DNA of 64,000 nucleotides from Ancrocorticia sp. (GTDB lineage: Bacteria; Actinomycetota; Actinomycetes; Actinomycetales; Actinomycetaceae): the NCBI GenBank assembly GCA_022648165.1, contig JALCLX010000003.1:180467-244466 (forward strand). The letters are read 5' to 3'. This document shows positions 9,001-40,901 of this stretch, one piece after another. The notes beneath the pieces were generated by a model. That model made no database searches and had not been told where the DNA came from. It worked only from the letters and a program-made list of their open reading frames with translations. The position numbers and the translations under genes were made by a program. Every line of letters begins with the position of its first letter. Within the stretch, counting starts at the first letter, position 1.

Positions 9001-9001
9001 C

Positions 9002-18113: not shown

Positions 18114-20701
18114 TGGCGAACAGGCTCAACATCAGTTTTGACTCCGACATGCTGGAGTCGATCAGTGCCGAGTTCGACCTGCGTGCTCCGAACAAGGAAG
18201 CACTGCGCCAGCTGGTCTTCACTCTCGACGGTGACTATGACCCGACCGTGATGCAGGTGCTGAATCTCGCCACGGGCGTGGGCAAGACCTATCTGATGGC
18301 CGCCTTCGTGGAGTATCTGCGTCGCCAAGGAGTTGGCAACGTCGTCATCGTCACCCCAGGCAAAACGGTGCAGGCCAAAACGGTGCAGAACTTCACGCCC
18401 GGCTCGCCCCGTTACATCACCGGCGCGGCGGTGCCGCCCGAGGTGGTGACCCCACAGGACTACTCGGCGTGGGTTGCCCGGCAGAACGGCCCGGCCCGAC
18501 TCGCGTTCGGCCGTGAAGTGCCAATGCTGGCGTTTATCTTCAACATCCAGCAGCTCATCGCGCCGAAGGACGCTGAGGGTGACACCCACGGGGCCACGCA
18601 GGATGCGATGCGCCGTAAGCCCCGCAGGTTCGATGAGAACGCCGGCGTGCTCTTCGACTACCTCAAGGGTCTCGATGATCTGGTTGTGATCGCCGACGAA
18701 TCCCACCTCTACGGGGCCAGCGCGGTGGCGTTCAACGCCGCGTTGAAGGAACTCGACCCAGTAGCGGCGATTGGTTTGACCGCGTCGGTGGACAAGGCTA
18801 CCGATCACGTCATTTTCGAGTACCCGCTCTACCGCGCCATCCAGGACAAGTATGTGAAGGCCCCCGTGTTGGCGTTCCGCAAGACTGGATATGGCACCGA
18901 TGAAGCCTCCGAAGAGCAGCAGTTGCGTGACGCGCTGCAATTGCGTGCGCTCAAGCAGGCCTACTACGACTCCTATGCCTCCTCACAGGGCCGTGATCAT
19001 GTGAACGCGGTCGCTTTCGTGGTCTGCTCCGATGTGGAGCACGCCACCCAGGTCGCCGAGCTGCTGCGCACCCCGGAGTACCTCGGCCGAGATGAGGCTG
19101 TGCTGCAGGTGGACTCCAAGCACGAGGATGAGTTGACCCAGCGTCGCCTCGACGAATTGGATCGGCCCGAATCGCCGGTGCTGGCGGTGGTGAGCGTGAA
19201 CAAGCTCAAGGAAGGCTGGGATGTCAAGAACATTGCAGTCGTCGTGACACTACGGGCGATGGCCTCCGAAGTGCTTACCCAGCAGACGATGGGGCGCGGG
19301 CTGCGGCTGCCGTTCGGCCGGTATACGGGTGTGTGGCAGATCGACCAGCTCGACATCATCGCCCACCAATCCTTCACCGAGCTGCTCAACGACGAGAACG
19401 TGCTGCAGCAGTTCGGCCTGGACGAAGCCGTCCCCGAACCCGACAAAGCCAAGGTAGAAGAGGCGATCCGCAAAGCCGCCGAAGAGTCCGGCACGGATAC
19501 AGGTACGCCCACGACCGGCGGTGACCAACCAACGACGACAACCGGTTCTGAACCGGGCACCGGTGTCAGTGGTGAGGTCGCCGGTGGTGTGGCTCCGCAG
19601 CCGGGCACCGTTCCCGTCGGCGGCAGTGATACCCCGGGTGCGGGTTTGCCCGGTGTCGGGGTTCGCACCATCACCGAGCAGGAGGATCAGCCCACCTGGG
19701 AGTTGGTGTCGATCGGACGGAACCCGAGCTTTGCTGACGTGTCCTACCGATTCCCGGTGACGACGATGACTGTGCAGCAGCCGCCCATTGACTTGTCAGA
19801 AATCAGTGACGCCGAGATTGAGCAAGCGGCGCGTCGGGTCACCTCTGCTGGGGACGTGCTGCTGCGCAAAGAGATCATCGCCGCCCTAGGCAAGAAACTC
19901 CGGGCAGAGGATCGAGAAAGCGCCGAAGTCGACTCCGTCCACGTCGACGACGCCGACGCCGAGGAGGCGCTAGTCAAACTAGTGATCAACATGTCGCTGG
20001 TGCCCAAAACCGAACAGACCGCCCGCTACGTCGCCACGTTCCTGGTGCCGAAGTTCATGCGCGCCGTGACGTTCACCGGCTGGACCGTCAAATCCCTCGA
20101 CTCCGCCCGCACCGAACTCCTAGCGCTGATCAAGAACTACACAACCGAGACACTGCGAGCCACCCGCGAGGTGCCGACCATACACCCCAAGTCGATGCCA
20201 GGCACCGGCTACACGCTCCCGTTGGGTGAGAAGGTGCATGACCAGATCGAGAGTCGTGACCAGTTCGTGCGAGGCCGGGTTTACGGCGGCTGGTTCAAGT
20301 CGCTATTCGCCGAGGAGTCCTTCGACTCCTTCACCGGCGAATACCAGCTTGCTCGCCTGCTCAACACGTCGCCGGGGATCGTGTGGTGGCATCGCCTGCA
20401 TCCGCAAGACCAGGCGTTCGTGTACTACAACGCGAAAGACCGCTACTTCCCCGACTTCGTAGCCTTGGACACCAACGGGGTGCATTGGATCATCGAGGGC
20501 AAGGACGAGCGCGGCCGCGATGACGCCAGGGTGCAGGCCAAGCGTAAGGCTGCCGAGGCGTTGGTGCGCCGGTTGGTGGCAGAGGATGCCTACGCCGGTC
20601 AGCACTGGGGATATCTGATCGCCTACGAGCAAGACACCGCCCGTGCCGACTCGTGGGAAGACCTGAAAGCCTTCGCCAGCCCGGTCAGCAACGCCCTGTA
20701 G
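18113..20701 (+). CDS. res: Type III restriction enzyme Res subunit (SF2 helicase + C-terminal PD-(D/E)xK nuclease)
   Basis: Walker A LATGVGKT (18269-18289), DESH (18695-18706), QQTMGRGLR, C-terminal YFPDFVALD...WIIEGKDERG. TGATG overlap with mod. Confidence 0.85.
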   Translation: MANRLNISFDSDMLESISAEFDLRAPNKEALRQLVFTLDGDYDPTVMQVLNLATGVGKTYLMAAFVEYLRRQGVGNVVIVTPGKTVQAKTVQNFTPGSPRYITGAAVPPEVVTPQDYSAWVARQNGPARLAFGREVPMLAFIFNIQQLIAPKDAEGDTHGATQDAMRRKPRRFDENAGVLFDYLKGLDDLVVIADESHLYGASAVAFNAALKELDPVAAIGLTASVDKATDHVIFEYPLYRAIQDKYVKAPVLAFRKTGYGTDEASEEQQLRDALQLRALKQAYYDSYASSQGRDHVNAVAFVVCSDVEHATQVAELLRTPEYLGRDEAVLQVDSKHEDELTQRRLDELDRPESPVLAVVSVNKLKEGWDVKNIAVVVTLRAMASEVLTQQTMGRGLRLPFGRYTGVWQIDQLDIIAHQSFTELLNDENVLQQFGLDEAVPEPDKAKVEEAIRKAAEESGTDTGTPTTGGDQPTTTTGSEPGTGVSGEVAGGVAPQPGTVPVGGSDTPGAGLPGVGVRTITEQEDQPTWELVSIGRNPSFADVSYRFPVTTMTVQQPPIDLSEISDAEIEQAARRVTSAGDVLLRKEIIAALGKKLRAEDRESAEVDSVHVDDADAEEALVKLVINMSLVPKTEQTARYVATFLVPKFMRAVTFTGWTVKSLDSARTELLALIKNYTTETLRATREVPTIHPKSMPGTGYTLPLGEKVHDQIESRDQFVRGRVYGGWFKSLFAEESFDSFTGEYQLARLLNTSPGIVWWHRLHPQDQAFVYYNAKDRYFPDFVALDTNGVHWIIEGKDERGRDDARVQAKRKAAEALVRRLVAEDAYAGQHWGYLIAYEQDTARADSWEDLKAFASPVSNAL

Positions 20702-21419
20702 CTGCGAGTTCGCCTGGGCGCATCACGGGGCTCCAGCGTTGCGGGAGGTCGAGGGTGACGGCCTCGCCGGTGATGAACACGAATCCGAGCCTGCCATCGG
20801 TGAGCATGCAGCCGCCCTCCAGCATGGCAAGGAAGTCCGGGATGTGGAGCGCAAGCTGGGTCGGCGATTCGGTCAGGAGCTTGTCGATCGCCGTGTGGAG
20901 TGTCGATGGGCGTCGCCGCGCACCCGTTGACTGCAGGCTGTCCACGGCCTGATCAACCGCCGTGCTGTTGCGCCCAGCGAGCACCTGCAACGCCTCGGCC
21001 ATCTTCACCAGCAACACCTCCTGGTAGAGGTGGCTGGTGGTGCAGGTGCCGCGCTTGACGTAGTTCGTCGGACACTCCCACACGTCGACCCGGTTCGGGG
21101 TGCCCGAGTGCCAGGTCTTGTGACCGAACGCCCGTCCGCAGTCGCCGCAGACGATCTTGCGGGACAGGCGCTTGCCGAAGGACTTGTAGCCGCGTGGGTC
21201 GACACGGGTGGCGAGCCACGGCAACTCGCGGTCTGCGATGCCGAGAGCCTCGGCGGCGTGGCGTTGGGCGTGGAATGCGTCCATCCACTCGACGGTGTAC
21301 CCGGCGGCGAGGTTTTCGAGGAGGAAGCTGGTCAGCCGGTAGGTCAGTCGGGCTTGTACTGTTGCGAGTTCGGGGTATTGCATGGTGGGGGCTCCTGTCT
21401 TTGCGTCACGTACATACAC
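20685..21419 (-). mobile_element. large serine recombinase fragment (zinc-ribbon and C-terminal region only; no catalytic resolvase domain)
   Basis: RKIVCGDCGRAFGHKTWHSGTPNRVDVWECPTNYVKRGTCTTSHLYQEVL matches the recombinase zinc beta-ribbon. No Ser-nucleophile N-terminal domain upstream. 17-nt convergent overlap with the res end. Confidence 0.6.
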
Positions 21420-21492: not shown

Positions 21493-24400
21493 TTGTCAGC
21501 CTCGACGCACGTGGTTCACGCCGCCCCACAACGCCTCTCGGACAAGCCAGCCACCGGAGCCGATCCGTCCGAATATGCGGCTCGACGGTCAACACTAAGG
21601 CGCGTTTTACCTAGTGGGGAGCGGGTTTCGCCCCATCTGCGTCATCCGCGCACCACAAACCCCTGTATCCACTTCGATACGGTGTGCGAACCTGCGCTCG
21701 GATCAGGTGCATTCGCGATTGAAGCCACGCGGCAACTTGCGGAACAGTATTTGCAGCGCCGGCAAAAAGAACTGGGCCAGACGATTGATCCAGATCAATA
21801 TCCGATCGAACTTCAGCGCGCAAAAACCTACATTGCACTGCACAACGTGTATGGCGTGGACCTGAATGCCACGGCTGTGGAGCTGGCGGAGATCACCCTG
21901 TGGCTGGATACGATGGCGCGCGGCCTTCATGCGCCCTGGTTTGGGCTTCATCTGCGGCGCGGTAACTCGCTGATTGGATGCCGCCGCGCGGTGTTCCGGC
22001 CCGATCAAGTCAAGGACGGATCGTGGCTTACTAATGTGCCCCGGGATGTTTCGCTCTATTCACCCGATGACGTGCTTCCTTCAATTGGGAACGGCATCCA
22101 CTATTTCCTTCTCCCCGCAAAAGGTTGGGGCGCCTCTGCCGATGCGAAAGCCGCAAAAGAACTGGCGCCCGATGCCCTCAAACGGCTCAAATCGTGGCGT
22201 AAGAGCGTCACCCGAAAGCCGAACCACACCCAGTGCCAAGAACTCGCAGTGCTTGCCGAACGCGTGGAGAAACTATGGGGCTTCGCCGTTCAACGCCTCA
22301 CCATTGCCGAAGCGCAAGTGCGCCGCACCGTCCCGGTGTGGGGCGCCGCGGGCCTCCCCGAAGGTGGCGCGGTGACGCGCGAGCAGATCGAAGCATCGCT
22401 TGCGGATCCGGCAGGTGCCTTCCAGCGTCTCAAAACCGTCATGGACGCGTGGAATGCGCTCTGGTTCTGGCCACTCACCGGTGCCGCGGCGAGCCGTACA
22501 CGTCTTGTGAATGGCCAGGAGGAAGCGGAACGTATCGATCCTCCCAGCTTTGCCGAATGGATCGAAACCCTCAAGGATCTGCTAGGCCACAAACCGGAGG
22601 CTACCAGCACCGGGGGAAAACGGTGGAAAGGTGGAGATGCCACACTAGCTAGTGCCGCAGTGTGGAATGAGCTGGGTGCGGCGGAGAAACTGGATCTGGC
22701 AGGCGCAGGAGCCGCGAGCCCACAGCAAATTGCCGAACGCCACCCGTGGCTGGGCGTATGCCGCAGTATCGCTGAGCAGCAGGGCTTCTTCCACTGGGAG
22801 CTCATGTATGGCCACGTATTTCACGCCCATGGCGGCTTCGATATGCAGGTGGGAAATCCTCCGTGGGTTCGGCCACGCGACGACGATGCCGCCTTGCTTG
22901 CAGAATTTGATCCGTGGTGGCAGCTCACCACTAAGCCGCCAGTGCTAGAGGTCAGGCGCCGCCGCGAGCAACTCCTGGCACACGCTGCTACCCGGAGCTA
23001 CTTCTTGAGTGCTTCCTGTGATTTAGCAGCCCAACGAGCGTCCGTCAGTTCGCCACAGGATTATTCCGTGCTTTTGGGGCTCCAGCCCGATTTGTATCGC
23101 TGTTTTATGGCCCAGACATGGCGGCATTCCTCCGCCCGTGGAACCATCGGATTGATCCATCCGGAGACGCATTTTACTGATGAGGCGGCCGGGTTGCTGC
23201 GCCAACATACGTACCGGCGCTTACGCCGCCATTGGCAGTTTGATAACGAACTCATGCTTTTCGACATTGACCATCACGTCTCTTACGGCGTCCACGTCTA
23301 CGGATCTGCGCGCACGCCCGATTTTATTCAGGCGACCTCGCTTTATCATCCGGATACTGCCGTCCGCTCTCTGGATCATGATGGTTCTGGCCCCGAACCT
23401 GGGTTAAAAGACCTCAGTGGGAACTGGGACCTGCGGCCACACAAGAGCAGGATCATCCACGTCACACCGGCGGCGCTGACAGTTTGGCGAGGTGTTCTCG
23501 AAACGCCAGATGTTCCTCCCCAACGTACTCGAATGGTGTACACAGTGAACTCATCTGTGCTGGACGTGCTGGTCAAGGCATCGCAAGCCCAGCGTATCGG
23601 CGATTTGGACCCGCTATTCTCAGCAGGATGGCACGAAACAGCTGACTTCAACCGTGGCCGTTTTGTCAAAGAGTGGGGCCCGGTGAGCGCCTGGGATGAC
23701 GCCATTCTTCAAGGCCCACATCTGCATGTCTCGTTGCCATTCTTCAAGTGGCCCAATAGAACAATGAAACATAATCAGGATTGGAACGGCATCGATCTAG
23801 AGGCCCTTGCCCCAGATGAATTGCCGATTACTTCCTATAAGCCAGCAGGCAGCCGCGAGGCATACGAATCGCAGTACACGCACTGGCAGGTGGGCGGCCG
23901 CGTGCTGGCGGCGCGGGACTTTTACCGTATCGCCTGGCGAAGGATGGCTGCCAATACCGGCGAGCGAACACTTATCTCAGCGATAATCCCACCCGGGTCG
24001 TCTCACATTCACCTGATGTGGGACATGGCACTGCCAACCTTGGGAAGCTCAAAGCTTCTCACTATCGCAGCTTCTATGAGTTCGCTCTTACTCGATCTTC
24101 TCATTCGAGTAGTACCGAAGAACGACATCGTATTTCCAACGATCCGAAGGCTGCCTTTAGTCAACAACAAGAGAATCTCAGCTCTTCTCATTATCCGAGC
24201 TCTTGAGCTCAACTGCCTCACCGAGGCCTACGCACCCTTGTGGCATGATGCGCTGGAAGAAATTGCGGCTGAGGATTCTCTCACCTCCACCATTACTGAC
24301 GAGAGCTTCTATGGGTGGACGGGCGGAATCGACTATCCAGGCAGGCGCCCACTGTGCGCGATCGAGAACGAGTGGACACCCGAATCGCGCCTCACCCGCG

Positions 24401-24747
24401 CCTCGGATCGCCGGCAGGCTCTGGTGGAAATCGATGCATTGGCGGCATTGGGCCTGGGGATCTCCGCCGATGAGCTCTGTTCTGTGTATCGCACCCAGTT
24501 TGGAGTGCTCTATGGTTACGATCATGAGCGCGATTATTTTGATGCGAATGGCCGCCTGGTGCCAAAATCGGTGATCGACGTGTGGAAGAAAAAAGGCAAC
24601 GCGATCTCAACGGAGGAACGTACGGCCGTCCACCCGCAAAGCGAGGCAGACTACGTTTATGAGCTCCCGTTCCGTTTGTTAGATAGAGAGGCGGATATGC
24701 GCCGCGCGTATAAGACCTTTGAGCAAAGGCTTGGGAGCGCACAATGA
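21493..24747 (+). CDS. large gamma-class amino (N6-adenine-type) DNA methyltransferase, Eco57I/type IIG-like, 5' end unresolved
   Basis: Motif I EPALGSGAF (21688-21714). Motif IV in FDMQVGNPPWVRP (NPPW 22855-22866). ~600-aa C-terminal region. ORF opens with TTG, has no RBS, and its first ~60 codons are not protein-like. Confidence 0.75.
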   Translation: MSASTHVVHAAPQRLSDKPATGADPSEYAARRSTLRRVLPSGERVSPHLRHPRTTNPCIHFDTVCEPALGSGAFAIEATRQLAEQYLQRRQKELGQTIDPDQYPIELQRAKTYIALHNVYGVDLNATAVELAEITLWLDTMARGLHAPWFGLHLRRGNSLIGCRRAVFRPDQVKDGSWLTNVPRDVSLYSPDDVLPSIGNGIHYFLLPAKGWGASADAKAAKELAPDALKRLKSWRKSVTRKPNHTQCQELAVLAERVEKLWGFAVQRLTIAEAQVRRTVPVWGAAGLPEGGAVTREQIEASLADPAGAFQRLKTVMDAWNALWFWPLTGAAASRTRLVNGQEEAERIDPPSFAEWIETLKDLLGHKPEATSTGGKRWKGGDATLASAAVWNELGAAEKLDLAGAGAASPQQIAERHPWLGVCRSIAEQQGFFHWELMYGHVFHAHGGFDMQVGNPPWVRPRDDDAALLAEFDPWWQLTTKPPVLEVRRRREQLLAHAATRSYFLSASCDLAAQRASVSSPQDYSVLLGLQPDLYRCFMAQTWRHSSARGTIGLIHPETHFTDEAAGLLRQHTYRRLRRHWQFDNELMLFDIDHHVSYGVHVYGSARTPDFIQATSLYHPDTAVRSLDHDGSGPEPGLKDLSGNWDLRPHKSRIIHVTPAALTVWRGVLETPDVPPQRTRMVYTVNSSVLDVLVKASQAQRIGDLDPLFSAGWHETADFNRGRFVKEWGPVSAWDDAILQGPHLHVSLPFFKWPNRTMKHNQDWNGIDLEALAPDELPITSYKPAGSREAYESQYTHWQVGGRVLAARDFYRIAWRRMAANTGERTLISAIIPPGSSHIHLMWDMALPTLGSSKLLTIAASMSSLLLDLLIRVVPKNDIVFPTIRRLPLVNNKRISALLIIRALELNCLTEAYAPLWHDALEEIAAEDSLTSTITDESFYGWTGGIDYPGRRPLCAIENEWTPESRLTRASDRRQALVEIDALAALGLGISADELCSVYRTQFGVLYGYDHERDYFDANGRLVPKSVIDVWKKKGNAISTEERTAVHPQSEADYVYELPFRLLDREADMRRAYKTFEQRLGSAQ

Positions 24748-27700
24748 CCGAGCTGCTCCCGGTTGATCAAGCGCACGCACTCACCGGCACTTTGCTGGAG
24801 TTCTTGGGAACCACATTCAGCTTGGACGCCCCAACGCGCGGCGCACTCAACGAGTTCCTCACTGATGAAGTCACCGGTATTTTTCGCGGACCATACGTGC
24901 GCGTGCGCTTGCCTTTTGCCCCGGCGCAGAACAACTGGACAGAGCTGCTTCCCGCGCATAAAGAAGGTTTCACTCCGTACAGCCACCAAGTTCGTGCTTT
25001 CCAGCGATTGAGTTCTGCCCATGGGCATGCGCCCGAACCCACCATGATCACTACCGGAACGGGCTCTGGAAAAACGGAGTCATTCCTTTTCCCGATCCTG
25101 GATCATGTAGTTCGCGCCAAACAGCGCGGAATACGTGGGATGAAGGCCCTGATCCTCTACCCCATGAATGCGCTGGCACAAGATCAGGCGAGGCGCTTAG
25201 CCGGGCTGATCACCCAGGTGCCCGCCTTCGCAGGAATCACTGCTGCACTGTACACGGGCGAGAACCCACAGAACGGCCGCATCACCGTCTCTTCTAGTGG
25301 GTTGATAACGGATCGTGGCACAATCCGGCGGGAAGCTCCCGATATCCTGCTCACCAATTACAAGATGCTGGATCAGCTGCTACTTCGCCACGCAGATGCG
25401 GCGCTGTGGGAGCAGTCGGCCCAGAGCCTCACCTACCTGGTGATCGACGAGTTCCATAGTTACGACGGCGCGCAAGGTACGGACGTTGCGATGCTGTTGC
25501 GCCGCCTCACACTGGCAATCGAGGCTTACAGGGGCGATACCGAACACCTTCCACTCGCGGGAATCACTCCGGTGGCCACCTCCGCAACACTCGGGGACAG
25601 GCGAGATCCCGCGGCGATGCTGGGCTTCTTCGAAACTGTCACGGGGTACCACGTGAGCGGCGACGCCGTCGTGACTGAAACCCGGTTGAGCTATGCCGAT
25701 TGGGCCCAGAGTGCACGCGAACACACCGCCGAAAGAAAACTGCATCCCTTGGAGCTTGACGATCTGGTAGCACAAGATGTCCGGGCAGTACTGGAATCCA
25801 TCCAATCGCAAGCGCAAAGTGACGTGGGCACGGGGATCGCCACTGATCCTGGGCGAGCCGCGCGCCTGGTGCTGAGCCGGCTGTACCACACAGATGCCGA
25901 GGAGCATCCCGTCCTCACGAATTACAGCGATGAGGAACTGCTGGAGTTGGCCGCCGCACACCCGCTCACCGAGACGATTGCTGGCGCCACCCAGAAGGCT
26001 ATACCGATCGCTGAACTCACGAAGATGATCTTTGGCTCCCATCTGCGCCGCGCTACTGACGCTGGCGTGGCAGACCTGTTTACTGGCATCTATCTTTCAG
26101 TTCTCTCTCACCTCCGCGCGGTCTGCGGCAGGAATGCGTTGACGATCGACGTAAACCTGTGGATCCGGGAGCTCACACGCATCGACCGGATCGTCTCCCC
26201 CGATACACCAGCGTTCCACTGGGCGGACGATGGGGCGATCGAACAGGCCGTGCTTCCCGCGATTTACTGCAGAAACTGTGGGCGCTCAGGCTGGGGAGTG
26301 TTGCTGGAGCCCACGGGGCTGGGGCTAGCGCGCAACGATCGTGCTATCCGGGGTGAACACGCACGCGGGTCCGAGCGCTTCCGGCCGCTGATCTTCGCCC
26401 CCGGAGAGGCGGAAATGCCCGGCGATGACGCACCGGCACCACTCTGGTTGGATATGGCAAGCCGGATGCTGCGCGCTGATACCGATACTGTGGAATCCAG
26501 CCTGCTGGTACCCGTACTCACGCACACGGGCGACGACGCAGGAAAGGACTCGAAGAATGACGTGTGCCCCGCCTGCGGCGCGCGAGATTCCATCCGTTTC
26601 CTGGGATCTGCGATTGCCACCCAGTTGAGCGTGGCACTGTCCTCACTACTTTCGACGCCTGGTATGAACGGCCGCGAGCGCAAGGCCTTGGTGTTCACTG
26701 ATTCTGTGCAGGACGCAGCGCATCGCGCCGGATTCGTGCAGGCACGCTCCTATAGTTTGACGTTGCGTGCGCTTATGCGCCAGGCGCTCGATGAAGGCCC
26801 CGCCACACTCACCGAACTCACACAGCGGATGCTCACCGCTGCCGGTTCAGATTCTCACCGGCGTTACGCATTACTGCCGCCCGAACTTGCCGAGATTCCG
26901 AATTTCCGGCGGTTTTGGGAGCAACCAGGCCGGCATGACCGGCGGACTCTTGCGCGCGTCACTACACGGCTCAGCTTCGATGTACAGCTCGAATTCGGGC
27001 TGCGATCATCCACCGGGCGCACACTTGAGGCGTCCACCAGTGCAGTGGTGGGTTACGATATCGCCGATGCCATACTGATCGCTGCCGCGCGGGACGTATT
27101 GCAGCAGGCCAATCAGAGCACCCTGGACGGCAGGGCATTCTTTGGCGGAGCGGAACCCACGGAGTCCGAGCTGCTGCGCTGGGCCATTGGCTTTCTGCAC
27201 CGCATGCGCATCCGCGGAGCAATTTCCCACAACTGGTGGAAGAAATTCCGTACCAAAGATGGAAACCGCTGGTGGATTACTGGTGGCAGAAAGCGCAACG
27301 ACGGAATGCCGGGGTTTGGCCACGGGAATTCCGCGCCCGGATTTCCGGTGATCGGCGCACGTGAAAGGATCGGGGAAGATCTTGAGCCCGTGGGCTCACC
27401 GGCTGGTTGGTATGCAATGTGGACGGCGAAGGCACTCCACGTTTCGCGCCCGGAGGGGGCAAGCCTTGCCAACGCTTTGATGCGGCGGCTGGAGGCGCGC
27501 GAGGTAGTTGAGGTTCTACCATCAGAATCCCGGCATACAACATATGCACTGCCTCCCGATCTGCTTCTTGCCGAGCCCGTCACCGACGCGATGCTCACCG
27601 GCGAACCGATTGCTCTGCGTTGTACGGTGTGCGACGCCGTCGTCCACGGTTCCCCACGAACTATTCGGGCACTTTCTGGTGGTCCTTGCCTGATGGGGCG

Positions 27701-30700
27701 CTGTGCTGGAACCTTGGAACGCACGGTACCCGGCGACAATTTCTACCGGCGAATGTATGCCAGCCACGGAGCGCGCCGCGTGGTTGCCCGCGAACACACC
27801 AGCCTGTTGGAACCACAGCTGCGGCTGCAGTACGAACAGGCTTTTAAGGCATCTGATCCGCCAGCAGATGCTCCGAACGTGCTTGTTGCCACTCCAACCC
27901 TAGAAATGGGCATCGACATCGGCGATCTTTCCGCTGCCATGCTGGCATCACTCCCGAAATCCGTCGCCTCATATCTGCAGCGCGTGGGGCGCGCGGGGCG
28001 GCTGACTGGCAACTCCTTGGTGCTCTCATTTGTCACCGCCCGCGGCGATCAGCTCCGCCGTTTCGCGCACCCTGAAGAAACTATCAATGGCGCGGTGCGG
28101 CCACCGGCAACATATCTCAATGCCTTAGAGATTCTGAAGCGCCAGTATCTTGCGGCCGCTGCTGACGCCTTGAGCCGTGAATCATCCGCTTTTGATCCGC
28201 GGAAAGCTGGTGCAATCCTTGATCCTTCCTCTCATGCGCATCTCCTGGAGCAACTGATCGCAAAAACTGAAGAGCCTGCTACGCTCGCCTCTTTCCTCGA
28301 AGTGTTTTCTCGGGGCGCCACCGCCGCGCATCTGCGCCCCGATACTATCCACAGCCTCCAGGATTGGGCGATGCCACATAACTCAACAAGCGGCGTGGCG
28401 CAACGGTGTTACCAGGCCGCCGCGAAGTGGAAGGCACGGCTTCAATCGCTTACTCACGCAGAAGGAGAAATAACGAAGGCAATCCCCGAACTAGAGGTGC
28501 GGGCGAAATCCCCATCTGCGAGCAGCGAGGATAAGCAGGCGTCCCGATCTGCGGCCGCGAATCGGCGCCATGTGGTAAGCCAAATCGCCACACAACGAGA
28601 CCAACACTGGATCTCCGCCATGGAAGAATACGGGTTGTTCCCCAATTACACGCTGATGGACGATTCCGTAACGCTTGATGCCCAGCTCTCATTCATGAAT
28701 CCGGAAACGCAGGATTATGAAACAGAGGAATTGGAAGTCGGGCGCTCTTCTGCCATAGCACTCCAGGATTTCGCACCGGGGAACACGTTCTATACGCACG
28801 GCTACGGGATCGCGATCGATGCCGTTGATCTGGGCAGAGACAACGAGAATATCCATCAATGGGCCTGCTGCGCCCAGTGCGGTTATGTTGCGGATCTTGG
28901 CGTCCAGGGATCGGAACTACGGCCACCTGCCGTGTGCCCGCGCTGCGGTGCGGACGGACTTGACGGCGCAGCTCAACGAGTGGCTGTTGTGGAACTGGAC
29001 CGCGTATCTGCGGTTTCGCGGCGCGACGACGCCCTTATTGACGATCGTGCAGAAGAACGCCAACACCGTGCCTTCACAACAGTCACACTGGCAGATATTG
29101 ATCCCGCAACAAGTAACTCCTGGTTCGTTGACGGCACCGAATTTGGAGTGCGGTATTCACGCGAAGTCGTAATGCGATGGATCAACACCGGACCGTCCGC
29201 GAGCAGGGGCCCCTCCCTCAACGTGGCCAACCAATTGGTACCTGTGCCAGCCTTTCGGCTGTGCGCGCATTGCGGAAAACTTGATACGGATTCCGGGCAG
29301 AACACTCCACGGGAGCATCGCCCATGGTGCCCGCAGCGCACTGCGCTGAAGGAAGACAACGTTGCGATTACATTAGGCCGGCACCTCGCTACTGAAGGTC
29401 TGCTACTGCGCATCCCGCGTTCCATTACCGTGGGTGAAGATTTTGCCTTGCCATCCCTCACAGCCGCATTGTTTCTAGCCCTCCGTGAACACTTGGGCGG
29501 AGATCCAGACCACCTACGCGTTGTCGCTGCTCCGGATCCTTCACCAACATCCCCAAGCAATCCACCCGGCCTGCTGATTTACGACACGGTTCCAGGGGGA
29601 ACAGGCTATCTTGCAGAACTCGCAGAGCCCGAAACTCTGTGGGACATCCTCAAGAAAGCCTATGACGTGCTGAGTGCCTGCAGCTGTCAAGATACCGGTG
29701 CCCTCGCATGCGAAAAGTGTTTACTTCCCTTCGCACCACCCAGCGACGTGAACCACGTCTCGCGCGCTGTTGCAGCCCGATCTCTGGCCAGAATTCTCAC
29801 CATAGAACAGGACCACGATTCGCTTGGCACAAACGATCTTCCGTGGAGCCATATCACCAATGACGATCCTGGCGAAATGGGCATCGAATCATACCTCGAA
29901 CAACAGTTTCGGGCGGTGTTGAAGGATCGCTTTACGCATGAAGGCGGAACCGTCCAAGAAAGGCCCGGGCCAGACGGCACGATCATCAACTTGACCACAC
30001 CGCAGCACGAACCCATGCGCGTTGATCCGCAGGTCAACCTTGCCGGCTCTCGGCCCGATTTCGTTGTGACTTTCGCAGACGCCGCACGCGCGCCTGTTGC
30101 CATATTCACGGATGGACGCGCGTTCCACTTCTCCCCCGCCTGCAATCGGGTCAAAGACGATGCGGAAAAACGTGAAGCACTGCGTGCCAGGGGTTACGCT
30201 GTGATCTCACTAACTGCGGCCGATCTGGTGCCGCATCAAGAACGCTTTTCGCCACCCTGGTACAACCCCGCAGTCACGGATGCGATTATGGCGGACGCGA
30301 CATCTGGGCTCTCCCGGACCACCTATGAATTATGCGAAGATTCGGAGCTGGACTTACTCCTTGAGTTCATCCGCAACCGCAACACTACCAGCGCCATCGA
30401 GAAACTTGGGCAGTGGCTTCCGCTTTATTTCTTCTCCGCGCAAAGCGAGCGCATCTCTGTTGGAGCGAATGTCGATTTGGCAGAAATCGCACGCGCGGCA
30501 ATTGATGGTAAAGATCTTTCAAGTTACGCCGGGCCCATGCCAGCGGCTGTGTGGCTTCATGGCACGGTTGCGGTGGTGACACGCCAACACGAAGATGGCG
30601 TGCGGTTCGATTTTGCCGCTATGCTGGACGACCGCGATGAGGCCGTTTCTGAACAGAACGTCGATTCATGGCGCATATGGTTGCACCTCATGAATCTGCT

Positions 30701-31109
30701 TACCCTGCGAACTGACCCCACTGCCGTCACCACCTACACGTCCAGCGCTGGTCCCATCGATATCCCTGTTACTACACGTGAAACTCCACTCGCGGACCTC
30801 ACATGGCAACCAGAAGGCGGATTGTCCATCGCATGGAAGGAAACGTTGGCGGAGGCACAGCCGGAAGAACGCCACATTCTTGAAGAGTTACTTCGGCAAC
30901 GCGGCAGTGCCATCCCACTGCCAACACTCGGATGGGAAGTGGGCGACGGTATCCCGCTGAGCATCGCCTGGCCCGATTTCAAAATCTCCGTAGCCTGGCC
31001 CGGAATCACGTCCCAAGATGAAGAGGAGATCGCGGCCGCAGGGTGGACAACCATTCCCGCCGATACGGACGCCATCGTGCACGCACTTAAAGACGCAGGA
31101 GGAATCTGA
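24744..31109 (+). CDS. 2121-aa SF2 (DEAD/DEAH-like) helicase fused to a DUF1998/MrfA-type zinc module and a Vsr/DUF559-like PD-(D/E)xK domain (DrmAB/DruE-like)
   Basis: Helicase: Walker A TGTGSGKT (25053-25076), DEFH (25446-25457), VLVATPTLEMGIDIGDL, QRVGRAGR (~27978). DUF1998-type: CCAQCG...CPRCG (28866-), LLIYDTVPGGTGY (29571-), ACSCQ...CEKC. Nuclease-like: RPDFVV...FTDGRAFH...DDAEKREALRARGYAV (30051-30200). ATGA overlap with the methylase gene. Confidence 0.8.
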   Translation: MTELLPVDQAHALTGTLLEFLGTTFSLDAPTRGALNEFLTDEVTGIFRGPYVRVRLPFAPAQNNWTELLPAHKEGFTPYSHQVRAFQRLSSAHGHAPEPTMITTGTGSGKTESFLFPILDHVVRAKQRGIRGMKALILYPMNALAQDQARRLAGLITQVPAFAGITAALYTGENPQNGRITVSSSGLITDRGTIRREAPDILLTNYKMLDQLLLRHADAALWEQSAQSLTYLVIDEFHSYDGAQGTDVAMLLRRLTLAIEAYRGDTEHLPLAGITPVATSATLGDRRDPAAMLGFFETVTGYHVSGDAVVTETRLSYADWAQSAREHTAERKLHPLELDDLVAQDVRAVLESIQSQAQSDVGTGIATDPGRAARLVLSRLYHTDAEEHPVLTNYSDEELLELAAAHPLTETIAGATQKAIPIAELTKMIFGSHLRRATDAGVADLFTGIYLSVLSHLRAVCGRNALTIDVNLWIRELTRIDRIVSPDTPAFHWADDGAIEQAVLPAIYCRNCGRSGWGVLLEPTGLGLARNDRAIRGEHARGSERFRPLIFAPGEAEMPGDDAPAPLWLDMASRMLRADTDTVESSLLVPVLTHTGDDAGKDSKNDVCPACGARDSIRFLGSAIATQLSVALSSLLSTPGMNGRERKALVFTDSVQDAAHRAGFVQARSYSLTLRALMRQALDEGPATLTELTQRMLTAAGSDSHRRYALLPPELAEIPNFRRFWEQPGRHDRRTLARVTTRLSFDVQLEFGLRSSTGRTLEASTSAVVGYDIADAILIAAARDVLQQANQSTLDGRAFFGGAEPTESELLRWAIGFLHRMRIRGAISHNWWKKFRTKDGNRWWITGGRKRNDGMPGFGHGNSAPGFPVIGARERIGEDLEPVGSPAGWYAMWTAKALHVSRPEGASLANALMRRLEAREVVEVLPSESRHTTYALPPDLLLAEPVTDAMLTGEPIALRCTVCDAVVHGSPRTIRALSGGPCLMGRCAGTLERTVPGDNFYRRMYASHGARRVVAREHTSLLEPQLRLQYEQAFKASDPPADAPNVLVATPTLEMGIDIGDLSAAMLASLPKSVASYLQRVGRAGRLTGNSLVLSFVTARGDQLRRFAHPEETINGAVRPPATYLNALEILKRQYLAAAADALSRESSAFDPRKAGAILDPSSHAHLLEQLIAKTEEPATLASFLEVFSRGATAAHLRPDTIHSLQDWAMPHNSTSGVAQRCYQAAAKWKARLQSLTHAEGEITKAIPELEVRAKSPSASSEDKQASRSAAANRRHVVSQIATQRDQHWISAMEEYGLFPNYTLMDDSVTLDAQLSFMNPETQDYETEELEVGRSSAIALQDFAPGNTFYTHGYGIAIDAVDLGRDNENIHQWACCAQCGYVADLGVQGSELRPPAVCPRCGADGLDGAAQRVAVVELDRVSAVSRRDDALIDDRAEERQHRAFTTVTLADIDPATSNSWFVDGTEFGVRYSREVVMRWINTGPSASRGPSLNVANQLVPVPAFRLCAHCGKLDTDSGQNTPREHRPWCPQRTALKEDNVAITLGRHLATEGLLLRIPRSITVGEDFALPSLTAALFLALREHLGGDPDHLRVVAAPDPSPTSPSNPPGLLIYDTVPGGTGYLAELAEPETLWDILKKAYDVLSACSCQDTGALACEKCLLPFAPPSDVNHVSRAVAARSLARILTIEQDHDSLGTNDLPWSHITNDDPGEMGIESYLEQQFRAVLKDRFTHEGGTVQERPGPDGTIINLTTPQHEPMRVDPQVNLAGSRPDFVVTFADAARAPVAIFTDGRAFHFSPACNRVKDDAEKREALRARGYAVISLTAADLVPHQERFSPPWYNPAVTDAIMADATSGLSRTTYELCEDSELDLLLEFIRNRNTTSAIEKLGQWLPLYFFSAQSERISVGANVDLAEIARAAIDGKDLSSYAGPMPAAVWLHGTVAVVTRQHEDGVRFDFAAMLDDRDEAVSEQNVDSWRIWLHLMNLLTLRTDPTAVTTYTSSAGPIDIPVTTRETPLADLTWQPEGGLSIAWKETLAEAQPEERHILEELLRQRGSAIPLPTLGWEVGDGIPLSIAWPDFKISVAWPGITSQDEEEIAAAGWTTIPADTDAIVHALKDAGGI

Positions 31110-33490
31110 TGCCAACAGTCATACTGCAACGTGAGTTCTCCAAACAAAACGATCGGCTGGATGGCTCTGTAAGCGCAGCAGTTTTCCGATTCCTTGCGAA
31201 ACTCCAAAAATCCGACACATCGACTGGACTGCATATCGAGCACATCGTTGGAGCTGCCGATCCACGAGTACGTACCGGCCGTATTACCGATTTCTACCGT
31301 GCTGTGCTGTATAAGGTGGATAATCCCGGCACTGAGCCTCTTTACATTTTCCTGGGAGCCCTTCCACACGATGACGCGATCGCGTACGCAAAAACCGTGT
31401 CCGTCAGCGTCAACCCCATCTCCGGCGTTGCCGAACTCAAAAGGATTAAAGCACCAGATAGCATCCCGCTCTCCAGGCACGAAACCCCACCCTATACCGG
31501 AGAAACGGATGCAGATTCGGCAACGCATTCAACTGCGCCGTCGCCGGCAAATCCACCCGAAGAGCACACAACCACACCGGTACGCCAAACAGGACCTGTT
31601 TACCCCATACTTGCGGCAACCGGATACACGATCCAGGACCTCGTTGGCCTTGGTATCGATCCCGAGTTCGCGCACAAGGCATTCGATGCGCGCGGGGAAG
31701 ACGAGCTGCTCGATATAGCGGATCAGGCACCCGCAAAATGGCAAGGACTCGCCATCATCAGCATCGGTACCGGCGCCACCCTGGAAGAGGTGCGAGAAGA
31801 ACTGCTCTCCGCCGACGACGGCACAGACCAATCGACTGCGGACGAACCGGAGCTTGTCAAGGCGTTGCACCACCCCGCATCACAATTGGACTTCGCATTC
31901 ATTGAGGCAGACGAAGATCTACGTGCTGCGATTGAGGATTTGGATTTCGCGCAATGGCGAGTCTTCTTACACCCAGAACAACGCCGTTATGTTATGCGTG
32001 ATCGCAATGGCGCATTCCGACTCTCCGGCGGCGCTGGAACAGGGAAAACCGTCGTATTGCTCCACCGCGCGCGGCATTTGCAACACAAAAACCCTGATGC
32101 CCGAATCGTGCTCACAACATTCAACCGAACACTGGCGCAATCGTTGGATGAGGGACTTGAAACACTCGATCCCGAGCTCACGCGCGCACGCGGCATCGCA
32201 AATCCAGGGATTCTCGTCGCTGGCGTTGATCAGCTTGTTATGCAGGTTCTTCGGGCTAACGCCAGCGACTTCGTAGGCGAATCAAGCATGGGCGCGCAGG
32301 CCGCGCAAAGAATACTGGGCGATGATCTCCCTACACGCGAGTTCATGGACGTGCTCAGCAGTTCTCAAGAAAGGGCCGTCTGGGAGGCTGCAATGGCCCA
32401 GGCGCCACACTTACCTGAGGCGCTTCACAACATTGCGTTTCTCGCTTCTGAATACTCCTTGGTAGTTTTGCCGAATCGGATCACACGTCAGGCAGAGTAT
32501 CTGCGGGCACGCAGGCCCGGGCGCGGCAAACGCCTCGGCCGCGGCGAGCGCATTGGCGTGTGGGAAGCAATCTCTCAGTTCCGTATTCGCTGCGCAATCG
32601 AAGGGTTCTCAACCTGGGATGAGAAAGCACAGATTGCTGCGCAGTACCTTGACGAATGCGTGGGCGTGGGGCGTGGCCGCCCGGCCGATTCAGTACTTGT
32701 TGACGAAGCACAAGATTTGAGCCCGTCTCATCTTGTATTCTTGCGAGCGCTCGCCCGCAAAGGGAAAAATGATTTATTCCTTGCCGAAGATTCACAACAG
32801 CGCATCTATGGGCACAAAGTTGTGCTATCGCGCTACGGTATTGAAATTCGCGGGCGTTCGCGCCGGCTTTCATTGAATTACCGCACCACGGCAGAGAATC
32901 TGGCGTATTCACTGAGCCTTCTTGAGGGAGTCGCATATGAGGACATGGACGGTGAGGCAGTTGACAACCGTGGCTATCATTCCATCCGATCCGGGCCCGA
33001 ACCGCGCATCGTTCACTGCCAGAGCGCAAGCGAGGAACTAGAAAAGCTCACAGCCACACTGCAATCGTGGATGGACCAGCACGTAGAGCCCGGTAGCATC
33101 GGCGTGCTATGTTACGCCAACAGGACCGCTGAAGGCCTGGCAAGGCATTTGACGGAGCTCGGCATTGCGGCAAAGGCCGTCTCCGGGGAAAGGCCGGCAA
33201 CGCCGGCACGCAAAGGTACGCATACTGGCCACACGAAGCAGGGCGCAAACGAAGGCAGCTACCAACCGGATGCCGCGATCCAAGTGATGACGATGCACCG
33301 TGCAAAGGGCATGGAGTTTTCGCGCGTGGTGCTCTTCAACGCCCTGGACGATGTTGATCATGCTGCGAACAGCTACTACACCGGCGTACCGGATGAAGAG
33401 CGCGATGATTATATGCAGCAGCTGCGATCTTTGATCTATGTGGCAGCGTCTCGCGCGCGCGACGAGCTGGTGGTGGTGACGCAGAAGTGA
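31109..33490 (+). CDS. UvrD/Rep-type SF1 helicase with N-terminal RelE/ParE-like domain
   Basis: Walker A LSGGAGTGKT (32027-32050), LVDEAQDLSP, VMTMHRAKGMEFSRVVLF, IYVAASRARDELVVV. N-terminal ...RTGRITDFYRAVLYKVDNPGTEPLYIFLGALPHDDAIAYAK. TGATG overlap with the upstream gene. Confidence 0.8.
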   Translation: MPTVILQREFSKQNDRLDGSVSAAVFRFLAKLQKSDTSTGLHIEHIVGAADPRVRTGRITDFYRAVLYKVDNPGTEPLYIFLGALPHDDAIAYAKTVSVSVNPISGVAELKRIKAPDSIPLSRHETPPYTGETDADSATHSTAPSPANPPEEHTTTPVRQTGPVYPILAATGYTIQDLVGLGIDPEFAHKAFDARGEDELLDIADQAPAKWQGLAIISIGTGATLEEVREELLSADDGTDQSTADEPELVKALHHPASQLDFAFIEADEDLRAAIEDLDFAQWRVFLHPEQRRYVMRDRNGAFRLSGGAGTGKTVVLLHRARHLQHKNPDARIVLTTFNRTLAQSLDEGLETLDPELTRARGIANPGILVAGVDQLVMQVLRANASDFVGESSMGAQAAQRILGDDLPTREFMDVLSSSQERAVWEAAMAQAPHLPEALHNIAFLASEYSLVVLPNRITRQAEYLRARRPGRGKRLGRGERIGVWEAISQFRIRCAIEGFSTWDEKAQIAAQYLDECVGVGRGRPADSVLVDEAQDLSPSHLVFLRALARKGKNDLFLAEDSQQRIYGHKVVLSRYGIEIRGRSRRLSLNYRTTAENLAYSLSLLEGVAYEDMDGEAVDNRGYHSIRSGPEPRIVHCQSASEELEKLTATLQSWMDQHVEPGSIGVLCYANRTAEGLARHLTELGIAAKAVSGERPATPARKGTHTGHTKQGANEGSYQPDAAIQVMTMHRAKGMEFSRVVLFNALDDVDHAANSYYTGVPDEERDDYMQQLRSLIYVAASRARDELVVVTQK

Positions 33491-34497
33491 GCACGGTTGG
33501 GTTCTTCACTCTCGCGATAGCTGCTGGACTGCTCACGGAAACAGTCTTCCGGTTGCTACGCCTTCGCCGTATCGAGGAGATTATCGGTGCAACGCCACTC
33601 TCCGTTTACCGAAACTCTCCGATGATGTACATGTCCGTTCAGGAGGCCTGTTATATGGGGCCGCGCATGATTCCCCGCTACGTTGTGTTTCGGTTCGTTC
33701 CACCGCTCATCGCTTTTCTTCTCGTTGCGGCCATATCAGATCGCAATGAGATCGATTCTCGTACCACTCTGCTCGGCTTGCTGGCTACAGCGATAGTTGC
33801 GGCGATTGCACGCGTCATCCCCAGTGGAGAGCCCACACCATTATCACTCAAAGTTCACCTGTTTCAAGGCATCGTATTATTGCTCGTCTTCGCTGAAGGA
33901 ACTCTCGTCTGGGTAGCCTCTAATCTCTTAGATCTATCAGCACTCGCCCCGACCTCCCAGGGACTCGTAGACAGCTTGTGGTCTGCGATGCTCGTTGCAG
34001 CCGTCATATTCCTTTATCTTTCGTTGCTTCGAGTAAAACCACCAATAGATCCCCTCGAGCAATCCCTTACCAACGCCAAAACTGATGCAGTATTGGCACG
34101 GTTCGCGTCACTCCAGAGCCAGTTTCGGCACATCGTCGAAAGCGCATGCAGCACAAACCATTGCTCGAAGAACCTGCTGTGGGCGGTCTTGATCTACGAG
34201 GATATGAATAGGCCGGCGTTCGTTCGAATCATTGAAAACTGGCTGGTCCGCCTTCCGGGCGTCAGCATGACCGTCGGAATCGGGCAAGTCGCCTCGCTCA
34301 CGCCGCTAACTGATGAACAGAGTATTGAACGGGCGGCTTCGTTACTTGCTAACTCGGAAGCCGTCATGACCCGTTACGATCTTGAACAAAACACAGACGC
34401 TAACCAGAAACTGGCAAAATACAACGATGATCCCAGATACACGGATGAAATCTGCCAGATACTTGACATCGTAAACATTGGTAGTCCGGGTGCATGA
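33487..34497 (+). CDS. polytopic membrane protein (about 5 TM) with C-terminal lysozyme/SLT-like motif
   Basis: GTG start overlaps the helicase TGA (GTGA). Hydrophobic segments across aa 5-200. LLWAVLIYEDMNRPAF...SMTVGIGQV (34174-34290) resembles the E-x-x-x-x-P ... G-x-x-Q pattern of lytic transglycosylases. Confidence 0.6.
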   Translation: MSTVGFFTLAIAAGLLTETVFRLLRLRRIEEIIGATPLSVYRNSPMMYMSVQEACYMGPRMIPRYVVFRFVPPLIAFLLVAAISDRNEIDSRTTLLGLLATAIVAAIARVIPSGEPTPLSLKVHLFQGIVLLLVFAEGTLVWVASNLLDLSALAPTSQGLVDSLWSAMLVAAVIFLYLSLLRVKPPIDPLEQSLTNAKTDAVLARFASLQSQFRHIVESACSTNHCSKNLLWAVLIYEDMNRPAFVRIIENWLVRLPGVSMTVGIGQVASLTPLTDEQSIERAASLLANSEAVMTRYDLEQNTDANQKLAKYNDDPRYTDEICQILDIVNIGSPGA

Positions 34498-34519
34498 TCT
34501 CCGCGCGAATACAGCAAGC

Positions 34520-35185
34520 TCAGTTGACCACTGCCTGCCAACTCCTTTTCTGTTTCTTGTGAGCCTCCTTTAGGAGGCGTTGTTTCTCAGCATCGAGATC
34601 ATTAACGATAATTGATATGAGTTGTCCGAAGTCGTCATCTTTGACTTTATGCCCGAGATCCTTTCGCATCTCGATCAGAATCGACTCGAATGCCGCCATT
34701 TGGAGAAAAACCGCAGCATCTGATCCCGTACCCCCTTGTGGAGACGATGCCGCCGCACCAGCACTTCTAAAGGCAGACATTCCCTGATTCCACACTTTGA
34801 TGAACTGGGGAGACGCATAGGTCAACATCTCCGCATAGACTTCGTGAAACATCTGTTTTTGGTCCTCCAATTGTGGACTCTGTGGCTCCTTCACATTCGC
34901 CATCATCCTTATAAAGAGCTGAACTACCTTGTTATAGAAGGCTGTTCGTTTATCTCTTATTGCTTCTTCCCTCGATTGTTTCTTCGCAACGTAAAGCTGC
35001 GTACCAAATGTAATAAGCGGCACTGATACCACCCCGAACAGTGTCAATATGCCAGTACGCGTGGCCGTATCGAGTTGACCGAACCATTGGATAGCTCCAC
35101 GTGCGAAATACCAAGCACCAATTACGAATATTCCGAGTAGCGACAACGCCGCAATGACCTGTAAAGACTGCACGATCTTGCGCAT
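34520..35185 (-). CDS. hypothetical 2-TM protein with helical cytoplasmic domain
   Basis: 221 aa. TM helices VIAALSLLGIFVIGAWYF and ILTLFGVVSVPLITFGTQLYV. No recognisable family. More AT-rich than its surroundings. Confidence 0.55.
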   Translation of the reverse strand: MRKIVQSLQVIAALSLLGIFVIGAWYFARGAIQWFGQLDTATRTGILTLFGVVSVPLITFGTQLYVAKKQSREEAIRDKRTAFYNKVVQLFIRMMANVKEPQSPQLEDQKQMFHEVYAEMLTYASPQFIKVWNQGMSAFRSAGAAASSPQGGTGSDAAVFLQMAAFESILIEMRKDLGHKVKDDDFGQLISIIVNDLDAEKQRLLKEAHKKQKRSWQAVVN

Positions 35186-35392
35186 GGTTTCCCTCTCATC
35201 TACTTCCCGGCCGCGACGAGGTCAGCATTCATTCTCCTAGTTGGTGGCACCGACGTGAGCTCTACACAGGCGAATGAGACACACCGAATCCATCTTGCCC
35301 AAGATAACGATCATTTACTATGTCTTGCCCCGAATCAGGGATCCCATGACGCCTAGTGTTATTACCATTAGACGTCATGAGATCACGCAGTG

Positions 35393-35671
35393 ATGCAGGT
35401 ATTCGGCAACAACGACACAGAACGCTTGTGACATCGCGAACGTTCACGGTTGTTGGACCCGAGGATTCAGCGAACCGCGTTACGAAAGCTACGCCACATT
35501 GACGCGGCCATGTCACTCAATGACCTGCGTATCCCGCCTGGCAACCGGTTAGAAACAGTCAAGGGTTCCAGGACCGTGTAGTACAGCATCAGAATCAATG
35601 ATCAATGGCTAATCTGTTGTAGTTAGACAAATCGCGCAGCAGAGGAGGTAGAGATCGTTGACTACCACTGA
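35393..35671 (+). pseudogene. higB: HigB (plasmid-maintenance killer/RelE-fold) toxin with three in-frame stop codons
   Basis: A single frame reads MQVFGNNDTERL*HRERSRLLGPRIQRTALRKLRHIDAAMSLNDLRIPPGNRLETVKGSRTV*YSIRINDQWLICCS*TNRAAEEVEIVDYH*. Stops are at 35429 (TGA), 35579 (TAG) and 35624 (TAG). Confidence 0.7.
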
Positions 35672-35957: not shown

Positions 35958-36073
35958 ACCCAGGCCGACGGCACCAGTTTCCAACAGATTCACGCTCAAA
36001 ACCTCATCCAGATTTCCCATTGACCGGTATCCTTTTACTGACTCGGATCTCAACAGCACAGGTAATTCCGGAG

Positions 36074-36658: not shown

Positions 36659-36749
36659 ATCAGATTTCCACATTAGTTTGCGTCATACACCCCGGTTATA
36701 CTAATCTCAAATATTGTCGTCAGCGACAAGTATCTCCAAGGAGTCTCTC

Positions 36750-37758: not shown

Positions 37759-37920
37759 GGGAATTGCCGTATACCCCGCTACACCAACGCATTCTTTCCT
37801 GTAAGTCGTAGCACGTACGTGGTCCACATCTCGCACATCTTTTTTTGCCTCCAGATTCGCGGGCCGACGCTATACGGAAACAATTGAGAACTCTGATGCT
37901 GACAGCACGTCGGATCGTCG

Positions 37921-40880: not shown

Positions 40881-40901
40881 CGCGATATAACACAGCGGTA
40901 T

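Follow-up and report, generated by a model that had tools for sequence, protein, structure and literature searches.

A partly deleted ARMADA type II operon, probably no longer functional, beside a Type III restriction-modification system in an Ancrocorticia defence island

ARMADA type II is an anti-phage system characterized in Escherichia coli and encoded by a strictly ordered operon, armA-armB-armC-armD (Bell et al. 2025, bioRxiv September 2025, PMC12458937). ArmA is a BrxHII/RapA-like SNF2 helicase, ArmB is a PglX-like adenine methyltransferase, ArmC joins a YprA-like helicase to DUF1998 and to a Vsr-type nuclease at its C-terminus, and ArmD is a fusion of a RelE-like head with a GajB-like UvrD helicase (PMC12458937). 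Protection in E. coli is direct and non-abortive, and requires all four genes together with the ATPase and NPPW motifs. Defence is abolished by deletion of any single arm gene and by mutation of ArmC K110 or ArmB N971 (PMC12458937); in enterohemorrhagic E. coli EDL933, loss of armA, armB, armC or armD each likewise abolishes defence (mBio 2026, PMC13463889), and DefenseFinder predicted ARMADA II in this strain, as reported in the same study. Here we analyzed a 64-kb stretch of contig JALCLX010000003.1 (positions 180,467 to 244,466; hereafter the window) from a metagenome-assembled genome (MAG) of Ancrocorticia sp. (Actinomycetaceae), which contains four overlapping plus-strand open reading frames (ORFs), referred to as genes 1 to 4; genes 2 to 4 correspond to MCI1675360.1 to MCI1675362.1. 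Orthology and gene order identify genes 1 to 3 as armB, armC and armD of this established, experimentally validated system. We conclude, with a probability of roughly 0.88, that the locus represents an ARMADA type II copy from which part has been deleted and which probably no longer works as ARMADA, and that the restriction-modification (R-M) role at this site now belongs to a Type III system.

ARMADA type II operons are represented by those of E. coli NCTC 12900, ATCC 8739 and EDL933 (z5899-z5902). The window proteins were compared with ArmB, ArmC and ArmD from the EDL933 operon (locus L160, 22665-38912), whose protein accessions match those given in PMC12458937, and are orthologous to them over nearly whole lengths at 29-32% identity. 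In BLASTP alignments gene 2 matched E. coli ArmC (WP_000937974.1) at 29% identity over residues 1-1828 with a score of 605 bits, whereas E. coli DruE returned three short matches at helicase motifs, the best with 117 bits. Residues 43-1023 of gene 1 matched residues 579-1540 of ArmB (32% identity, E = 1e-140), and gene 3 matched ArmD end to end (29% identity, E = 3e-83). The resemblance extends to the gene order, the overlapping genes, the position of the Walker A lysine, which is K110 in both the window and the E. coli ArmC, and the DExH box at residue 234/235, as well as to the NPPW motif, DUF1998, the Vsr-type nuclease and the RelE-like head on ArmD. The window differs from the E. coli operons in that armA and armB codons 1-550 are missing, with a Type III R-M system and a recombinase remnant in their place, and in that an unrelated membrane protein gene (gene 4) overlaps the armD stop codon. 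A first-pass annotation of this DNA had described the four ORFs, and all of their coordinates, stop/start overlaps (ATGA at 24744-24747, TGATG at 31107-31111, and GTGA at 33487-33490) and quoted motifs are present in the sequence. Its proposal of a gene content outside every described subtype fails, because genes 1 to 3 belong to ARMADA II (PMC12458937, PMC13463889).

Full-length relatives of gene 2 (∼2100 aa) number in the thousands, nearly all of them actinobacterial. Synteny was evaluated in 80 species-level loci of such relatives, 64 of which included at least 9 kb upstream and 72 at least 2.5 kb downstream. ArmA and a full ArmB are encoded directly upstream of ArmC in 43 of the 64 loci, both are absent within 10 kb in 12, and a partial ArmB lies at the edge of the fetched locus in the remaining 9. 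An ArmD-like gene was found downstream of ArmC in every one of the 72 loci that could be scored. The protein upstream of armB in one relative (L002) is SNF2/DrmD/BrxHII-like, and the window keeps the co-directional order of the truncated armB (armB'), armC and armD. A homologue of gene 4, which the first-pass annotation placed in its four-gene block, is present in none of the 80 loci.

The domain assignments made earlier for genes 2 and 3 were substantiated. Pfam identified DEAD, Helicase_C and MZB (DUF1998) domains in gene 2, the last at residues 1573-1660. The protein is a YprA-family DExH helicase with the Walker A motif GTGSGK110T, and both K110 and D235EFH are invariant in the alignment. 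Its C-terminal module (approximately residues 1758-1833) matched PF18741 (REase_MTES_1575) in 12 of 14 relatives, with the best match (E = 5e-6) scoring below the Pfam cut-off, and P1771-D1772-F1773, D1790 and K1809, including the predicted nuclease aspartate D1772, are invariant. The best match among PDB profiles was 3r3p (E = 0.084), which is also the structure given for the ArmC nuclease by Bell et al. (PMC12458937). These comparisons confirm the C-terminal domain of ArmC as a predicted Vsr-type PD-(D/E)xK nuclease.

Gene 3 contains a Pfam UvrD helicase domain at residues 288-791 with the Walker A motif GAGTGK313T, and matched GajB models (∼1e-17) and NERD+UvrD models in PADLOC. An AlphaFold2 model of residues 1-120, computed with 41 homologues, had a confidence score (pLDDT) of 83.5. 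The top ∼30 PDB matches in a Foldseek search with this model were all RelE/YoeB/YafQ/ParE toxins, with target-normalized TM-scores of 0.6-0.74, and they include 3bpq_D, the match for the ArmD head given by Bell et al. (PMC12458937). The model thereby confirms the RelE fold of the head (residues 1 to ∼112), which precedes a UvrD/SF1 helicase of the GajB type.

Kinship to DISARM and Druantia, as proposed in the first-pass annotation, is real, being reflected in profile matches to DruE3, DrmD and DrmMI, and the signature genes DrmC and DruH are absent as it stated. As in Druantia type III (DruH-DruE), a very large YprA-family helicase is combined in gene 2 with DUF1998 and with a nuclease at the C-terminus, and the best PADLOC 2023 model for gene 2 was DruE3 (PDLC00037, 1.8e-87). 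Assignment of gene 2 to Druantia III was nevertheless rejected, since no DruH-like gene is adjacent, Pfam detected no PLD domain, the similarity to DruE is local only, and the nuclease is of the Vsr/PD-(D/E)xK type rather than PLD. Class 1 DISARM (DrmD, DrmMI, DrmA, DrmB, DrmC) has in common with ARMADA an SNF2 helicase, an adenine methyltransferase and a YprA helicase/DUF1998 core, and in PADLOC the ArmA proteins of the relatives matched DrmD at 2e-96 and ArmB matched DrmMI. Unlike class 1 DISARM, however, the helicase and DUF1998 are fused in a single 2121-aa protein, there is no PLD gene corresponding to DrmC, and an extra RelE-UvrD helicase is present. The helicase domain of ArmD is a UvrD/SF1 domain like that of Gabija GajB, but GajA is missing, ArmD carries the RelE-fold head, and ArmD is always paired with ArmC.

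ArmB resembles BREX PglX and 'Type IIG' enzymes in being a gamma-class N6-adenine methyltransferase with an Eco57I/MmeI-type fold and a C-terminal specificity region. It differs from Type IIG enzymes in that Pfam returned no nuclease domain either for gene 1 or for the full-length ArmB proteins of two relatives (L001 and L002). Nor is it encoded as a single-protein system in the 43 of 64 loci where the full-length gene sits between armA and armC. PADLOC labeled gene 1 as REase_MTase_IIG (6e-289); this candidate assignment as a Type IIG R-M enzyme was set aside because of the missing nuclease domain and because full-length ArmB matches the profile (PDLC03611) almost end to end, covering positions 3-1285 of 1532 with 1412.7 bits, so that the profile behaves as an ArmB-family model. 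With ArmB fitting the 'Type IIG' profile and ArmC scoring as DruE3, PADLOC-DB 2.0.0 (2023) miscalls ARMADA II as a Type IIG R-M system plus a partial Druantia. Pfam and PADLOC, both suggested as checks on the four proteins, gave Pfam domains for genes 1 to 3 and none for gene 4, and no whole-system PADLOC model.

The window was compared with two further haplotypes, L003, whose ArmC is 98% identical, and L084, which is from another Ancrocorticia MAG. L084 is intact: between the flanks that border the locus in the window, it contains armA (1068 aa), armB (1571 aa), armC (2121 aa), armD (793 aa) and gene 4. Gene 1 had been described as a 1084-aa gamma-class methyltransferase, and its ORF, the Pfam Eco57I/MmeI_Mtase match, motif I EPALGSGAF (21688-21714; residues 66-74), NPPW (22855-22866; residues 455-458) and the C-terminal specificity region all bear this out, but it is not a complete gene. 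Full-length ArmB relatives are 1551-1650 aa long, and homology to them begins in the window at nucleotide 21679, which is codon 63 of the ORF. By tblastn only residues 560-1545 of the L001 ArmB and 591-1644 of the L002 ArmB align to the window, and gene 1 covers positions 551-1404 of the PADLOC profile. The blastn alignment between L084 (6939-26366) and the window (21679-41108; 96.8% identity) starts at the same nucleotide; the breakpoint is therefore at armB codon 551 of 1571, and armB' is missing the ∼550-aa N-terminal domain.

The 62 codons that precede armB' in the ORF have no homology to any ArmB compared by tblastn or blastn. Between the window and L003, 28 of 60 residues of this leader differ, with a ratio of nonsynonymous to synonymous substitution (dN/dS) of 0.79, that is, neutral evolution, and the L003 leader contains an in-frame stop codon such that the first usable start lies beyond the GSG motif. 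There is no Shine-Dalgarno sequence before the TTG start of gene 1 in the window. Searches by tblastn and blastn with ArmA from L001, L002 and L084 and with the ArmB N-terminus gave no match anywhere in the 64 kb; the L084 ArmA is 36% identical to that of E. coli. Both the truncation of gene 1 and the absence of the obligatory first gene, armA, were overlooked in the first-pass annotation, and the 1084-aa methyltransferase ORF should carry a truncated-gene flag.

The Type III R-M genes, a 234-aa ORF and the recombinase remnant stand in the window where L084 has a hydrolase gene, armA and the 5' end of armB. L003 has exactly the same breakpoint, together with the Type III R-M system and the recombinase fragment. 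Identity between the window and L003 leaps from ∼89% to 99.4% precisely at the junction, corresponding to ∼11% divergence on the left and <1% on the right. The recombinase fragment and armB' are arranged head to head, both apparently without their 5' ends, which suggests that the Type III cassette arrived through a single deletion or replacement event. In the proposed history, armA and armB codons 1-550 would have been replaced by a cassette carrying the Type III R-M genes and a serine recombinase, and the recombinase would later have been reduced to a fragment. What remains is armB' (codons 551-1571), extended to 1084 aa by the 62 unrelated codons, along with intact armC and armD. The Type III system would have taken over as the working R-M-type defence at the site.

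To the right of the junction the three haplotypes form a mosaic. The window is unlike both of the others at 22.5-23.5 kb and 24.5-26 kb, and L003 is unlike both of the others at 23.5-24.5 kb. Identity drops to 67-87% across the 3' half of armB and the 5' end of armC between haplotypes that are 99-100% identical elsewhere, with the reading frames kept. This pattern (22500-26000) is consistent with ARMADA alleles having recombined with one another, mainly around the presumed specificity region.

A different kind of variation in armB was observed in L001/L004 (Actinomycetaceae bacterium L2_0104). An 888-bp inverted repeat (89% identity), pairing armB 5897-6775 with 9000-8122, encloses the 3' end of armB together with an alternative version of that end in inverted orientation, the latter a 479-aa minus-strand ORF with 48% identity to window 23290-24735. 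Between armB and armC lies a gene for a tyrosine integrase (8971-9876). The arrangement (5897-9900) looks like an invertible switch of the ArmB specificity domain. In L029, too, part of armB is present as a second copy on the minus strand. The ARMADA preprint (PMC12458937) contains no wording on inversion, shufflon or phase variation.

Gene 4 belongs to a real family: a word-indexed homologue search returned gene 4 alone, but a full HMMER scan gave 486 matches to proteins of ∼330 aa. E238, N241, R242, G264, Q267 and N313 are invariant in the family and Y312 is nearly so. The AlphaFold2 model of gene 4 (pLDDT 88.6) consists of five long N-terminal helices followed by a helical C-terminal domain. 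The soluble lytic transglycosylase (SLT)-like character attributed to this tail is a weak resemblance. Foldseek matches were to 3gxk (a g-type lysozyme), MltE and SltB, with probabilities up to 0.97, E ∼0.7 and TM ∼0.5, which are non-significant; the best PDB profile was again a g-type lysozyme, at a non-significant E = 0.32, with the Glu and YN motifs aligned. Gene 4 is taken as a membrane-anchored protein, probably lysozyme/lytic-transglycosylase-like.

Metagenomic homologues of gene 4 (74 loci, L085-L158) are never adjacent to ArmC or ArmD. In 26 loci they follow a conserved gene for a ∼200-aa protein located 45-72 nt upstream; in 12 they are near Type III Res-like genes, and RadC-like and polysaccharide-deacetylase genes also occur nearby. 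The family and its ∼200-aa partner may form a two-gene module of their own. No such partner was found in the window by tblastn or hidden Markov model (HMM) searches.

The relationship of gene 4 to the arm genes bears on two other explanations of the locus. Genes 1 to 4 were first taken as a coupled unit of ∼13 kb, and could be imagined as a complete, unclassified DISARM/Druantia-like system with a membrane component: overlapping stop and start codons join all four ORFs, gene 4 follows armD with the same 4-nt GTGA overlap in the intact L084 as in the window, and PADLOC 2023 has no model for such a system as a whole. The overlaps are real, but the orthology of genes 1 to 3 to the published ARMADA II, the truncation of gene 1, the absence of gene 4 from all 80 related loci, and the unrelated contexts and different partner of its homologues elsewhere make this explanation very improbable. 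Homology between the window and L003 ends exactly at the armD stop (33487) and resumes at 39179; in place of window 33488-39178, L003 has 1.2 kb of DNA carrying an Abi_2 gene, with armD unaltered. Gene 4 was rejected as a component of ARMADA on the break at 33487 and the count of 0/80, and is regarded as variable cargo. A genus-specific accessory role, for example as a membrane lysozyme-like effector or sensor translationally coupled to ArmD, would account for the GTGA overlap, for retention of the gene in the intact haplotype and one truncated haplotype, and for the catalytic-type Glu, GxxQ and YN motifs that are invariant or nearly so. Such a role is improbable, however, given that gene 4 was lost from L003 with no change in armD, that linkage to ArmC or ArmD is missing both from the 80 other species and from the 74 metagenomic loci, and that the lysozyme-like assignment is itself weak.

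The remaining alternative concerns loss of function. Because defence in E. coli depends on every one of the four arm genes, the window copy is probably inactive as ARMADA, and having lost armA and the N-terminal domain of ArmB it would no longer function as such. Alternatively, armC-armD, with or without ArmB', may still provide a methylation-independent helicase-nuclease defence that does without ArmA. A number of observations speak for this and thus against a dead remnant. In each of the truncated haplotypes the three arm ORFs are intact and indel lengths are always divisible by 3, and armC and armD each have their own Shine-Dalgarno sequence. The dN/dS of armC between the two truncated haplotypes is ∼0.1-0.14, a signal of purifying selection, and the ∼11% divergence to the left of the shared junction may mean that the truncation is old, yet the genes are intact. 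Two further points count against loss of function as such: armA and armB could be present elsewhere in the same genome, the scope here being the 64-kb window, and the essentiality data are from E. coli only. Independent support for a stand-alone armC-armD module comes from the loci with ArmC and ArmD but neither ArmA nor ArmB within 10 kb (armCD-only), which make up 12 of the 64 species examined upstream, have intact ArmC ORFs and form clades (L015, L027, L035, L045, L048, L056, L058, L062, L066, L078, L079, and L082; also L012, L021, and L024). On the ArmC tree seven Nocardia/Rhodococcus species form one monophyletic clade, five Micromonospora species fall in a group that also holds two loci with armB, and two are Streptomyces species; three of the Nocardia loci have two tandem ArmD paralogues. 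Since armCD-only loci recur in Actinomycetota, residual activity of armC-armD is possible. On the other side, two independent studies in E. coli found defence to be lost once armA or armB was deleted (PMC12458937, PMC13463889), and a search of the armCD-only loci for a conserved partner that replaces ArmA and ArmB found none. The low dN/dS was dropped as a test of selection after the truncation in view of the mosaic recombination and the step from 89% to 99.4% identity at the junction; the three-way mosaic and this sharp step imply that repeated gene conversion from intact alleles could hold the frames open without selection, which can explain both the low ratio and the intact ORFs. Continued activity of armC-armD is therefore unlikely, though it carries real weight, and we regard some residual function of the remnant as a minor but appreciable prospect. 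It is a rather doubtful extension of the same idea that armC-armD is a self-sufficient defence module that has persisted on several occasions after armA and armB were lost, with the window catching the transition and the armCD-only loci representing an undescribed methyltransferase-free ARMADA subtype, in part with a duplicated ArmD. Taken together, the evidence favors a partly deleted ARMADA type II copy that has probably lost its function as ARMADA.

The features of the locus are listed in Table 1. On the left a fructose-bisphosphate aldolase gene ends at 11014, and on the right an SDF transporter gene begins at 39270; with these core metabolic genes on both sides, the defence island is taken to span ∼11-39 kb. 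The defence-island setting with an adjoining Type III R-M system noted in the first-pass annotation was upheld by the Mod and Res matches.

Table 1. Coordinates of the ARMADA remnant and neighboring features in the window
Feature	Coordinates	Strand	Description
NERD nuclease domain + SF1 helicase-like ATPase	12484-14421	-	645 aa; left island edge
234-aa ORF	14891-15595		Among the features standing where L084 has the hydrolase gene, armA and armB 5' end
Type III Mod	16278-18113	+	PADLOC MTase_III, 1e-162
Type III Res	18110-20701	+	PADLOC REase_III, 2e-64
Large serine recombinase remnant	20685-21419	-	244 aa; Pfam Zn_ribbon_recom at residues 85-136
Gene 1 ORF (leader + armB')	21493-24747	+	1084 aa; TTG start
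Non-homologous ORF leader	21493-21678	+	62 codons; junction sequence, outside armB
armB'	21679-24747	+	Codons 551-1571; 3' two-thirds of PglX-like N6-adenine methyltransferase gene; tblastn, blastn, PADLOC, BLASTP
armC (gene 2)	24744-31109	+	2121 aa
armD (gene 3)	31109-33490	+	793 aa
Gene 4	33487-34497	+	336 aa; GTG start
Stand-alone HSDR_N protein	37921-39024	-	367 aa; Type I R N-terminal, PD-(D/E)xK-like

The Zn-ribbon is the sole Pfam domain detected in the recombinase remnant, and L003 has this fragment too; from the position of the Zn-ribbon within the ORF, the protein appears to have lost its catalytic N-terminus. The centre of the Type III mod gene (16794-17354) has no nucleotide homology to the L003 copy (L003 1889-2620), whereas the genes are 90-95% identical elsewhere, which probably reflects a swapped target-recognition domain. 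The NERD protein at the left edge of the island matched PADLOC RTasNERD-Hel (2e-15) and also the candidate NERD+UvrD system C3a187, and is a probable defence gene. The cargo slot between armD and the SDF gene (33488-39178) holds, in addition to gene 4, a 221-aa minus-strand ORF, two ORFs of ∼280 aa without a family match, and the HSDR_N gene; the corresponding slot in L084 is annotated with small helix-turn-helix genes. A tRNA scan found no tRNA gene marking an integration site in the 64-kb window, and a scan for the sigma-70 consensus, which says little for an actinobacterium, found no plus-strand promoter upstream of gene 1.

As a system the locus offers nothing new, ARMADA type II having already been named and experimentally validated; the armCD-only architecture is the sole lead with some novelty, and its recurrence across Actinomycetota poses the question of whether ArmA and ArmB are dispensable outside E. 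coli. For Ancrocorticia itself, the finding of three haplotypes at a single chromosomal position within the genus shows defence-island turnover under way, with armA and half of armB overwritten by a Type III R-M cassette. ARMADA alleles also go on recombining over the 3' half of armB and the 5' end of armC.

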